A stretch of DNA of 27,166 nt. It comes from a virus (taxonomy: Duplodnaviria; Heunggongvirae; Uroviricota; Caudoviricetes). The stretch is from the IMG/VR virus record IMGVR_UViG_2526164690_000039; one strand, given 5' to 3'. This document shows, one piece after another, positions 15,001 to 18,000 of this stretch; the stretch's first letter is position 1; each line of letters opens with the position of its first letter. The position numbers were made by a program.

Positions 15001-18000
15001 GGCCTTAGTTGGTCAGATATCTTGGAACTCGCTTTTCAGCGACGTAGGACGAATGTCCGTTGTTACAAAGAGCGGGGTTACTTATGCTGCTGATGCTCTA
15101 CGCGATACGAACACCAGATTTTCCTTTTTCACAGGTTTATAACCCGTGAAATTACGAGTGGCTTCTTCGATTGCATTCGCTTTATCTGGGGAAGCTCTTC
15201 GAAACCCATATACAATCTGATCAAGATAGCCAACTGAAGTATTCGCTAATGCGGCGAGTCGCTTCCATTCCTCACTAGAAGCCTCTTTTCGCCAGCGTAG
15301 TAGTTCATTACTCATTAGTGCCTCCGTTTATCACACAGAGCGACTTTACCATTTTGATAAATAAAACGCAATGAAGATTTATCAAAATGCATATTTATCC
15401 ATTTGCTAAATAGAGGGAGAATCGTGGGATGGAAAACAAAGATATTCGCAAATCGAATCTGGCGTTTTTGCTAGATGAGCATAAAAAAATCGCGGGTAAC
15501 ACTAATGCAAGCTTTGCCGATAAGCTTGGAGTTAGCCCTTCTCAACTCACGCAAGTCTCCGGTGAAAAAAGCACTCGAAACATAGGGGATAAACTAGCAA
15601 GAAAATTCGAAGCCGCACTTGGGTTACCTAATGGGTGGCTTGATTTGGTACATGATGTAACACCAATTGCATCATGCTCAGATTCTTTAACTTTTGTCGG
15701 TCAGGTAAGAAAAGGGTTAGTGCGCGTGGTTGGTGAGGCAATTCTTGGTGTTGATGGTGCCATCGAGATGACCGAAGAGCGCGATGGGTGGCTCAATATT
15801 TATAGCGATGATCCAGATGCCTTTGGTCTTCGTGTGAAAGGAGACAGCATGTGGCCCAGAATAAAATCAGGAGAATATGTACTCATTGAGCCTAACACCA
15901 AAGTATTCCCGGGGGATGAGGTGTTTGTCAGAACTGTTGAAGGACACAACATGATCAAAGTTCTTGGCTATGACAGAGATGGAGAATACCAATTTACAAG
16001 CATCAACCAGGACCACAGGCCAATAACGTTGCCTTATCATCAAGTAGCAAAGGTGGAGTATGTGGCTGGTATTCTGAAGCAATCTCGCCATCTGGATGAC
16101 ATCGAGGCAAGGGAGTGGCTGAAAAGTTCGTGACTTCATCGTCACATAGCTGGTAACCAGTGGCCTGAAGAGACGTTTGGGTGATGTGATAGAGATCATT
16201 ATTCAATTCGATTGAGAAAAATCATCATAAGGTTTATATCCATTTATTAGATTTTATGTGTATAAATAGTTAAAAATGCACGATGTAGAGATATTTGTGC
16301 TTAACATCAATTAATCATTGCTAAATCGTGCTTATTGTTCAGAAATCGCCCAAGTCATATTGAAAATCTGTTGGCGAACACCTATATAAGGAGTATAGTT
16401 AGTGACCCAAAACGTATTGCCAATCAACAAGAGCTTGCATGACCGAGCTGTTGATGAATTTAATCGTCTGCATGGAACAATGATTGGCGAGATTAGTGCA
16501 ATGCTGAAAACAGCTAAAGTAGCGCCATTGGTGGATCTTCGTAAGAAAGATCCTACCTTTTCGAACGTTGTCGCAGAATTACGGACATTCAGAGACGTAT
16601 GTAATGCTCTGCTCCCATACTTTCGTGTAGATAAGACCAGCGAAATCGCTGTCATCGATAAGTTACTTATACTGGCTAATGACCTGGCTCAAGCCATCGA
16701 TGCTGACGATCCTGACGCATTGTGCGCAGCAATAGCAGCCCTTGATGTTGAGCCTTACATTTAAACGAGGGGAAAAAAAATGACTAAAGCGTTTGACTAT
16801 ACTGCCGTTAGTAAGCTTTTGGCTGAAATGCGCGGATGTGTAGAGCGCGTTCAAAATCTACGCCGCGACTTTGAAGCTCACATCAATCATTCACAAAAAG
16901 CGGCTTGATACTTAAGTTAGATGACAGAACCCGGCCTCAGCGCCGGGTTTTCTTTGCCTCACGATCCCCACACCTAATAACACCTTAACCAATTGTATTT
17001 ATTGAAAAATTGATAGATACAACTTTCTAAACCACGAAATTCTGATCCCCCTCAAGTCTCTTCATTCCTTCTGATAAATTCCCGCAATCAAATAAAAAAC
17101 CATAATAATCAACAGGATATTTGAAAACCCAAACAATTTATCATTTTGCTATTGCCATCAGTTTATCATTTCGATAAAGTCAACTCATCAGCAGGACGCT
17201 GTAAGCCAAACGGAGCAGACTGGCAGGCTCTTTAAACAACGTCGAACACTCGACTACGTGGCTGAAAAGCCAGATCACCCAACCACATAAGCTGTGGGAT
17301 GCAATGCCGAAGTAACCGTCTCAGGAGGAGCTTCGAGATTGCATCGCCAAAGTTTATTCGGGAGGAATCTATGTCCAGAAAAACAGAATTTAAAGGCACC
17401 GCAGCTTCTCGCCGTAGAGCTCGTCGCGCAAACCTGCAAAGTCAGGAGGCGATTAGCTCCGACAAGCTACACAGGCCAACCCCTTCACGAGTGGTCTTGC
17501 AATGCAAGCGCAAACCAGCAATGAGAGCAGAAGTTATAACTCTGACAACGTTGACCAGAAAATATGAAGGTTCAACTTGTCTTCCAAACGTAGCCATTTA
17601 CGCGGCAGGCTACCGGAAATCAAAACAACTGACAGCGAGGTGACGATCCCCCCCGCCGTAGAGGAACTAAATTAGCTCATCAGCTTTACCAGCAAAGCGC
17701 ATATAACACTCATGGAACCAGACGTCAGGTATAACAAATTTCTCTTTACCTGACGCGCTGTAAGTCACACCTGAGCGATGGAGAAGGCCTTTTCTCATAA
17801 GAGATAAAGCGACCGGATCGCCGTGCTTAAGTACGATTTTGTTATTTGCCATAACAGCAAATGCTAAAACCTCTTTTTCCTGAATACTCAGAGAATTGAA
17901 TAGGCGCTCAGTCTCCACAATTACTTTAGCCTCATCTCTCTTACTGAGATATTTTTTATATCTGTCTGAAGATGCCAGAAATATAAACTCCATCCCCCTG

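Follow-up and report, generated by a model that had tools for sequence, protein, structure and literature searches.

The stretch of DNA analysed here (27,166 nucleotides (nt), below called the window; IMG/VR virus record IMGVR_UViG_2526164690_000039, Caudoviricetes) carries the early control region of a lambdoid phage, the + strand of the window corresponding to the leftward direction of lambda. In this region, cII (−) and cro (−) are followed by the repressor gene cI (+), two small genes, the leftward promoter pL with the antitermination site nutL, the antiterminator gene N (+) and, finally, sieB (−). The operators, promoters and nut sites found among these genes are listed with them in Table 1. 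With a probability of about 90%, we regard the window as a non-Stx (that is, not Shiga toxin-encoding) lambdoid prophage residing at the lambda attachment site in Escherichia coli strains of the O26/O111/H19 type, and its early control region as a mosaic of two known modules, namely an immunity cassette of the type of phage H-19B (cI, cro and the right and left operator regions, OR and OL) and an N/nut module of the type of phage VT2-Sakai.

The origin of the window is indicated by complete bacterial genomes. Prophages in 86 complete E. coli genomes contain the 3.1 kb around the immunity region at 100% identity; these genomes belong mainly to O26:H11 and O111 Shiga-toxin strains and include strain H19. 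In the latter, the matching prophage adjoins ybhC and has a lambda-type integrase, and its annotation shows no Shiga toxin gene where it overlaps the window. Identity between the window and the H19 prophage amounts to 99.8–100%, except for a 1.3-kb insertion at 9745–11072.

The immunity cassette and its relation to H-19B

The cI repressor agrees with that of H-19B at 233 of its 234 amino acids (aa), and since the sole change, at residue 123, falls outside the N-terminal domain, the DNA-binding domains of the two proteins are 100% identical. The protein also shares 99.6% identity with cI of BP-4795, ST2-8624 and many Stx1a phages, and the same cI occurs in AU5Stx1. Over the first 80 residues, the sequence is specific to the H-19B group, and from residue 81 on it is ~94% identical to the 933W/phi24B repressor group, with an S24 peptidase domain (Pfam PF00717, E=3.8e-16) at residues 103–206. 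At the DNA level, identity to H-19B is 98.2% over the 5.1 kb from nin to cI, the cI, O, P and nin genes being nearly identical, and the same immunity cassette is present in BP-4795, AU5Stx1 and ST2-8624. Moreover, the H-19B-type OR together with the cI N-terminal region (query 15300–15700) was found in 216 of the 5426 complete E. coli genomes (~4%), at 243 places, which means that ~27 genomes carry two copies and suggests that some cells harbour a pair of prophages sharing one immunity.

The region shares its gene order and logic with lambda, whose operators are likewise 17 bp long and overlap pL and the rightward promoter pR. By contrast, lambda has an unrelated operator sequence and an unrelated repressor DNA-binding domain, and the absence of significant similarity between the DNA-binding domain of this cI and lambda cI bears out the non-lambda immunity specificity proposed by a first-pass annotation of the same DNA. 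That proposal went further and treated the specificity as an uncharacterised one. Were the region to encode a new immunity specificity, distinct from those of all characterised lambdoid phages, one would expect the missing similarity to lambda cI, and it would also fit with the N-terminal domain having neither a Pfam helix-turn-helix match nor a solved structure nearer than E=0.02 (searches against PDB sequences returned only weak matches, one of them to a phage CI at E=0.022). Nevertheless, with 233 of 234 cI residues and the entire DNA-binding domain as in H-19B, with operators identical to those of H-19B, and with the same cI in BP-4795, AU5Stx1, ST2-8624, many Stx1a phages and 216 of the complete E. 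coli genomes, novelty of this kind is extremely improbable: the specificity is that of H-19B. Immunity specificity, operators and nut architecture are those of phages characterised before, and sequenced genomes frequently contain this same DNA.

The window and H-19B do, however, differ in several respects. The prophage that houses the cassette here is a non-Stx one located at the lambda attachment site, the operator spacers and the cro–cII segment represent a different allele, and a type other than that of H-19B is seen in N, in nutL and at the critical bases of nutR. Of the 93 differences in the 5.1-kb alignment, 68 fall within 14600–15430, a segment comprising cII, nutR, cro and the OR spacers, and this clustering in the aligned sequences points to a probable recombination patch.

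As for the remaining genes of the cassette and its surroundings, the cII product is a true CII protein according to Pfam and is 42% identical to lambda CII, differing through the region aligned with the helix-turn-helix and retaining the C-terminal tail, which agrees with the divergent CII noted in the first-pass annotation. The lambda-type character assigned there to the replication and integration modules holds as well, given that O, P and Int are, respectively, 95%, 98% and 99% identical to their lambda counterparts. For cro, no Pfam match and only weak matches to PDB sequences were obtained.

Operators and promoters

Three copies of a 17-bp operator had been proposed for this region, and all of them were confirmed on the sequence, one as a perfect TTTATC-N5-GATAAA palindrome (TTTATCATTTCGATAAA) and two with a single mismatch each (TTTACCATTTTGATAAA and TTTATCCATTTGCTAAA). 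With up to two mismatches allowed, the window contains six matches to this palindrome compared with 1.39 expected, a number that none of 100 shuffles of the window reached, while TTTANC-N5-GNTAAA matches exactly three times in 27 kb (0.04 expected), in each case at one of the proposed sites. GenBank record GQ499358 (‘immunity region; similar to bacteriophage H19-B’) annotates OR0–OR3 and OL1–OL3 as repressor binding sites, and mapping these onto the window identifies the three 17-mers as OL1, OR1 and OR3. Therefore, the operators and promoters chosen initially coincide with sites annotated for H-19B-type immunity, and the inventory was incomplete, because OL2 (at the very start of the interval delimited at the time), OR0 and a middle OR site had been missed.

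Comparison with H-19B itself (GenBank AF034975; Shi & Friedman 2001, Mol Microbiol 41:585) showed that OR1, OR3 and OL2 are identical and that OL1 differs by one central base. The likeness extends to the two promoters, both of the form TTGCnn-17-TAAAGT, and to an OR with four TTTATC-containing sites, in line with a sentence in a review that, citing Shi & Friedman 2001, counts four operators in the OR of H-19B.

As proposed earlier, these promoters overlap operators: TTGC-N19-TAAAGT matches exactly twice in the window, compared with 0.08 matches expected, and the two matches, the candidate pL and pR, overlap OL1 and OR1, respectively. In both, the operator occupies the promoter spacer and extends into the −10 element, the initial four bases of which double as the end of the operator. 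The candidate pL is, in addition, one of just three matches in a generic sigma-70 scan.

To follow the sites among relatives, IMG/VR viral contigs were scanned with the first 100 residues of cI, which yielded 55 loci. In 51 of them the N-terminal domain is the same or 99% identical, and the other four have a diverged relative. The loci that share the cI DNA-binding domain provided 20 distinct OR and 19 distinct OL sequences. Within these, OR1, OR3 and OL2 vary at no more than one position each, and the three variable positions of OL1 all belong to the central N5 (Table 1), whereas the unmarked flanks vary more, at 11 of 46 positions in OR and 46 of 95 in OL. Both TTGC and TAAAGT of pR are invariant among the variants, and the conserved part of the middle OR site is limited to TTTATCA.

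The four diverged relatives, ~52% identical over the first 100 aa of cI, differ in the predicted recognition helix. They nonetheless keep the same three OR positions, with half-sites TTTAGC/GCTAAA (e.g. TTTAGCGTTATGCTAAA at the OR1 position), and carry TTTAGC at the position of the middle OR site. New half-sites thus accompany a new recognition helix, implying that repressor and operator change together, and the comparison of TTTATC with TTTAGC assigns the variable half-site position to position 5. This sister repressor group (L058–L061, positions ~2870–3300) is found in combination with Sakai-type nut sites.

Could the 17-mers be no protein binding sites at all, being instead chance A/T-rich sequence of promoter regions? 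TTTATC alone is indeed common, with 35 copies in the window, and the regions in question are A/T rich. But a chance origin accounts neither for three matches to the full motif where 0.04 are expected, nor for the constant position of the sites relative to two promoters, nor for their near-invariance between variable flanks in ~20 variants, and it is further contradicted by the half-site shifting along with the repressor in the diverged relatives and by an H-19B-like record in which the sites are annotated as binding the repressor, leaving this explanation virtually untenable.

The N/nut module

The N protein (90 aa) shares 98.9% identity with the equally long N of VT2-Sakai, phage 2851 and Stx2 II, and is 84% identical to N of the Shigella phage POCJ13. 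In contrast, it shares only 40% identity with the 127-aa N of H-19B and is 37 aa shorter. Its C-terminus aligns with N of H-19B and P22, the resemblance to P22 N being confined to the last 24 residues, and its arginine-rich motif can be aligned with the lambda N motif (ASRRRARRANLQSQ vs QTRRRERRAEKQAQ; in a longer alignment, AASRRRARRANLQSQE vs AQTRRRERRAEKQAQW), with Glu at the position of lambda N Trp18. The label ‘P22/21-type N’, given to this protein in the first-pass annotation, was therefore imprecise. VT2-Sakai (Sp5) possesses the same N/nut module, but combines it with unrelated cI, cro and operators and with an HK022-like replication module.

The parallel build of nutL and nutR and their positions had been recognized correctly; the boxB loop, given at that time as GAAA(A), is best taken as a GAAA tetraloop, rather than GAAAA, closed by a 5-bp stem at both sites. 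The nutR site, which begins 7 nt past the cro stop codon, is identical to nutR of VT2-Sakai, and nutL is identical to its VT2-Sakai equivalent save for the loop of the spacer hairpin. The nut sites of H-19B (Neely & Friedman 2000, Mol Microbiol 38:1074) have the same build, consisting of boxA, a spacer hairpin, UACG and a 5-bp boxB stem. The spacer hairpin of H-19B nutR is even identical to the one found here, but its boxB loop is GACAA, so that nutR of the window is distinguished by a 1-nt deletion in this loop along with changes in boxA; the similarity of the two nutL sites is limited to architecture. Lambda differs in having a GAAAA/GAAGA pentaloop in boxB, and the nut spacer in the window, unlike that of lambda, carries a hairpin. 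In P22, the boxB loop is GACAA. A five-nt loop, as in the lambda- and H-19B-type sites, is thus not present in the window, where the loop measures 4 nt at both sites, and nutL of POCJ13 has the loop GCAA, still conforming to GNRA. The 4-nt loop is a variant of lambda-type N/nut antitermination and no argument against this mechanism.

The spacer hairpin occurs in every relative and always in the same place, between ...ACAA(C/U) and the invariant UACG that precedes boxB, yet its stems differ, being GGAC/GUCC, GUCGA/UCGAC (with three loops), GGUGA/UCACC or, in nutL of H-19B, GAUUC/GAAUC. We compared these stems directly from the parsed table, because MAFFT lost the hairpin register of the nut variants. 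Compensatory changes that yield four unrelated stem sequences argue that the spacer hairpin is under selection. Rfam has no match at the nut sites, its sole match in the window being RNA-OUT. The nut sites of H-19B are said to contain a dyad symmetry in the spacer, and boxA is reportedly dispensable in them, with NusB and S10 not needed. One paper, in a passage on H-19B, mentions ‘two hairpins’ in nutR (PMC3526286), and alternative NUT RNA structures figure in the title of Neely & Friedman 2000, from which it follows that the spacer hairpin was already known for this group.

A total of 51 loci with H-19B immunity, or H-19B itself, have N and both nut sites visible (the window included), and they fall into three classes with no exception: H-19B N occurs with GACAA (29 loci), Sakai-type N with GAAA (18 loci) and lambda N with GAAAA/GAAGA (4 loci), in each case at both nut sites. 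A degenerate boxA...boxB pattern scan of the viral contigs produced mainly random matches and was used for three loci only. The match between N type and boxB loop in 51 of 51 loci means that nut sites travel with N and not with cI; in evolutionary terms they do not belong to the immunity cassette, of which the first-pass annotation had made them a part. The joints of the mosaic are found just past the boxA of nutR (~15077) and in the shared CATCAGCAGGACGC directly after pL.

These results also bear on the simpler view that the whole early region is H-19B, with nut sites and N of H-19B (P22-like GACAA) specificity. It has in its favour that the DNA through nutR lies inside the 98.2%-identical H-19B stretch and that the nutR spacer hairpin is identical in both phages. 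We nevertheless consider it very improbable in view of the short N with its 40% identity to H-19B N, the GAAA instead of GACAA loops at both nut sites, a nutL that resembles its H-19B counterpart in nothing but architecture, and the strict co-segregation of N type and loop type.

Sakai-type and H-19B-type nutR differ essentially in one loop nucleotide (GAAA vs GACAA) within otherwise ~92–98% identical DNA. Given that loop type tracks N type despite this one-nt difference, loop length could serve as a one-base specificity switch. Tentatively, and with somewhat less than even confidence, we propose that the VT2-Sakai-type N/nut module constitutes a separate, uncharacterised N–boxB class, in which a GNRA tetraloop is paired with a lambda-like arginine-rich motif bearing Glu at the Trp18 position, and in which loop length is such a switch. 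No description of a tetraloop boxB specificity of Sakai-type N was found in the literature available, which is weak evidence of absence, and this specificity may be the only part of the system that is still open for novelty.

Table 1. Genes and regulatory sites of the early control region, in window coordinates; variable positions refer to the 20 distinct OR and 19 distinct OL sequences of relatives
Feature	Position	Strand	Sequence or product	Basis and remarks	Variable positions
cII	14644–14943	−	99 aa	Pfam Phage_CII PF05269, E=6e-35	
nutR	15029–15074	−	boxA CGCUCUUUGUAACAA (15060–15074); spacer hairpin GGAC-AUUC-GUCC (15047–15058); boxB UCGCU-GAAA-AGCGA (15029–15042)		
cro	15082–15315	−	77 aa	Open reading frame; annotated as cro in H-19B and AU5Stx1	
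OR0 equivalent	15327–15343		TTTATCACACAGAGCGA	OR0 of GQ499358; over the predicted pR start region	Only the TTTATC half conserved
pR (candidate)	15343–15371	−	TTGCGT-17-TAAAGT	TTGC-N19-TAAAGT scan	
OR1	15345–15361		TTTACCATTTTGATAAA	Identical to OR1 of GQ499358 and H-19B	1/17
Middle OR site	15370–15394		Consensus-register 17-mer TTTATCAAAATGCATAT (15378–15394)	Equivalent of OR2 of GQ499358 (15370–15386)	
OR3	15394–15410		TTTATCCATTTGCTAAA	Beside the cI start; identical to OR3 of GQ499358 and H-19B	1/16 (scored on 15395–15410)
cI	15429–16133	+	H-19B-type repressor, 234 aa	Identity to H-19B cI; Peptidase_S24 domain	
Terminator-like hairpin	16930–16955	+	CCCGGC-CTCAGC-GCCGGG, then TTTTCTTT	Read from the sequence; 3′ of the genes downstream of cI	
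OL3 equivalent	17105–17121		ATAATCAACAGGATATT	Position of OL3 of GQ499358; weak match, 8/12 half-site positions	
OL2	17137–17153		TTTATCATTTTGCTATT	Identical to OL2 of GQ499358 and H-19B; overlaps the pL −35 by 2 bp	0/17
pL (candidate)	17152–17180	+	TTGCCA-17-TAAAGT	TTGC-N19-TAAAGT scan and generic sigma-70 scan	
OL1	17162–17178		TTTATCATTTCGATAAA	OL1 of GQ499358; perfect palindrome	3/17
nutL	17226–17272	+	boxA GGCUCUUUAAACAA (17226–17239); spacer hairpin GUCGA-ACAC-UCGAC (17241–17254); boxB UGGCU-GAAA-AGCCA (17259–17272)		
N	17371–17643	+	VT2-Sakai-type antiterminator, 90 aa	Pfam N_peptide, E=8e-32	
sieB	17667–18206	−			

Probable regulatory circuit, neighbouring genes and significance

Our analyses directly established sequence identity to characterised modules, the non-random occurrence of motifs, the conservation and covariation of sites and the co-segregation of N with boxB. 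By homology and on the model of lambda, repressor dimers would bind 17-bp sites of the form TTTAnC-N5-GnTAAA, and repressor at OL1/OL2 and OR1, assisted by OR0 over the start region, would block pL and pR. As OL1 and OR1 lie between the −35 and −10 elements and overlap the latter, and OL2 lies over the −35 element of pL, bound repressor should exclude RNA polymerase from these promoters. OR3 and the middle OR site lie ahead of cI, where autoregulation of cI transcription would be expected. RecA-stimulated self-cleavage through the S24 domain would lift repression and allow induction. The transcripts from pL and pR would then carry boxA, a short spacer hairpin and the GAAA boxB hairpin, and N made from the pL transcript would bind boxB on both early transcripts via its arginine-rich N-terminus, so that, together with NusA and other Nus factors, it should enable RNA polymerase to read through downstream terminators.

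Several points weigh against the mosaic reading and the circuit derived from it. Repressor binding, repression, promoter start sites and antitermination are ascribed to the region by homology, and the operator names, likewise putative, come from one GenBank annotation and one review sentence. In addition to lacking a Pfam helix-turn-helix match, the N-terminal domain of cI reaches a pLDDT (predicted local distance difference test) of just 61 in a single-sequence AlphaFold model, a low-confidence prediction that is all-helical, with helices at residues 26–33 and 37–45. The candidate pR was missed by the generic sigma-70 scan because its −35 element matches the consensus at only three of six positions. 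Among the operators, the annotated OR2 is off the consensus register. Its position has the lambda-like 25-bp spacing from OR1, equal to that between OL1 and OL2, while the best-fitting 17-mer agrees with the half-sites at 8 of 12 positions and abuts OR3, overlapping it by 1 bp. The equivalent of OL3 is not only a weak match but also poorly conserved, with 4 of 17 positions variable when scored on 17103–17119, a 17-nt interval placed 2 nt to the left of it. Finally, the predicted minimum-energy fold of nutL RNA joins boxA to the 3′ half of boxB (−14.9 vs −12.8 kcal/mol).

For nutR (region 15025–15079), the predicted energies are −11.9 kcal/mol with boxA:boxB pairing and −11.7 kcal/mol with the local hairpins, so that the minimum-energy folds of both nut RNAs would be compatible with a selected regulatory structure, capped by the spacer hairpin, whose long-range pairing keeps boxB hidden before factors bind. 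The sites in the window even differ jointly at boxA position 1 and in the boxB stem, with G accompanying GGCU/AGCC in nutL and C accompanying CGCU/AGCG in nutR. Such covariation is, however, broken by nutL of POCJ13, which has A at boxA position 1 with a GGCU/AGCC stem, and by the L058-type nutL, which has C with GGCU/AGCC, and a conserved boxA:boxB masking structure was rejected for this reason. Considering also that the energy gain is small (0.2–2.1 kcal/mol), that z-scores are unremarkable (−1.3 to −2.4) and that co-transcriptional folding favours local hairpins, we deem masking very improbable. In the same kind of prediction, the local boxB hairpin of nutL (17222–17276) has a probability of ~4% at equilibrium.

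Several neighbouring features deserve mention. In place of lambda rexAB (16134–16910), the window has two unrelated small genes without a Pfam match, encoding 120 aa (16402–16764) and 42 aa (16780–16908), and a promoter-like TTGGCG-17-TATAGT is located just upstream of them, at 16371–16399. The terminator-like hairpin that follows is placed in DNA with homology to the lambda sequence immediately past rexB and is conserved in H-19B; it was not listed by the generic scan. Relative to lambda O, the O protein (13673–14611) has a 13-aa insertion, and the annotation of AU5Stx1 gives six origin iterons, compared with four in lambda. The 1.3-kb insertion that is missing from the otherwise 99.8–100% identical H19 prophage is an IS10-like transposable element in the nin region (9745–11072), with a 402-aa DDE transposase gene at 9758–10966 (−) and the Rfam RNA-OUT match at 10959–11028 (98.8 bits). 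Amid phage genes of the late region, an LpxR-family lipid A deacylase gene (Pfam E=7e-40; 6849–7808, +) looks like cargo.

As a discovery, the control region described here matters little. It does provide a natural example of modular exchange, in which the partner of one immunity cassette is any of three N/nut specificities, the two nut sites always switching together. If our tentative proposal holds, it would be the loop-length switch that lets the H-19B immunity cassette combine with at least three different N modules. The H-19B immunity type, which has been studied for its control of Stx1 phage induction, is thereby confirmed to occur also in non-toxin prophages that occupy the lambda attachment site. 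This has a practical bearing on superinfection immunity and on recombination of toxin with non-toxin prophages in Shiga-toxin E. coli.

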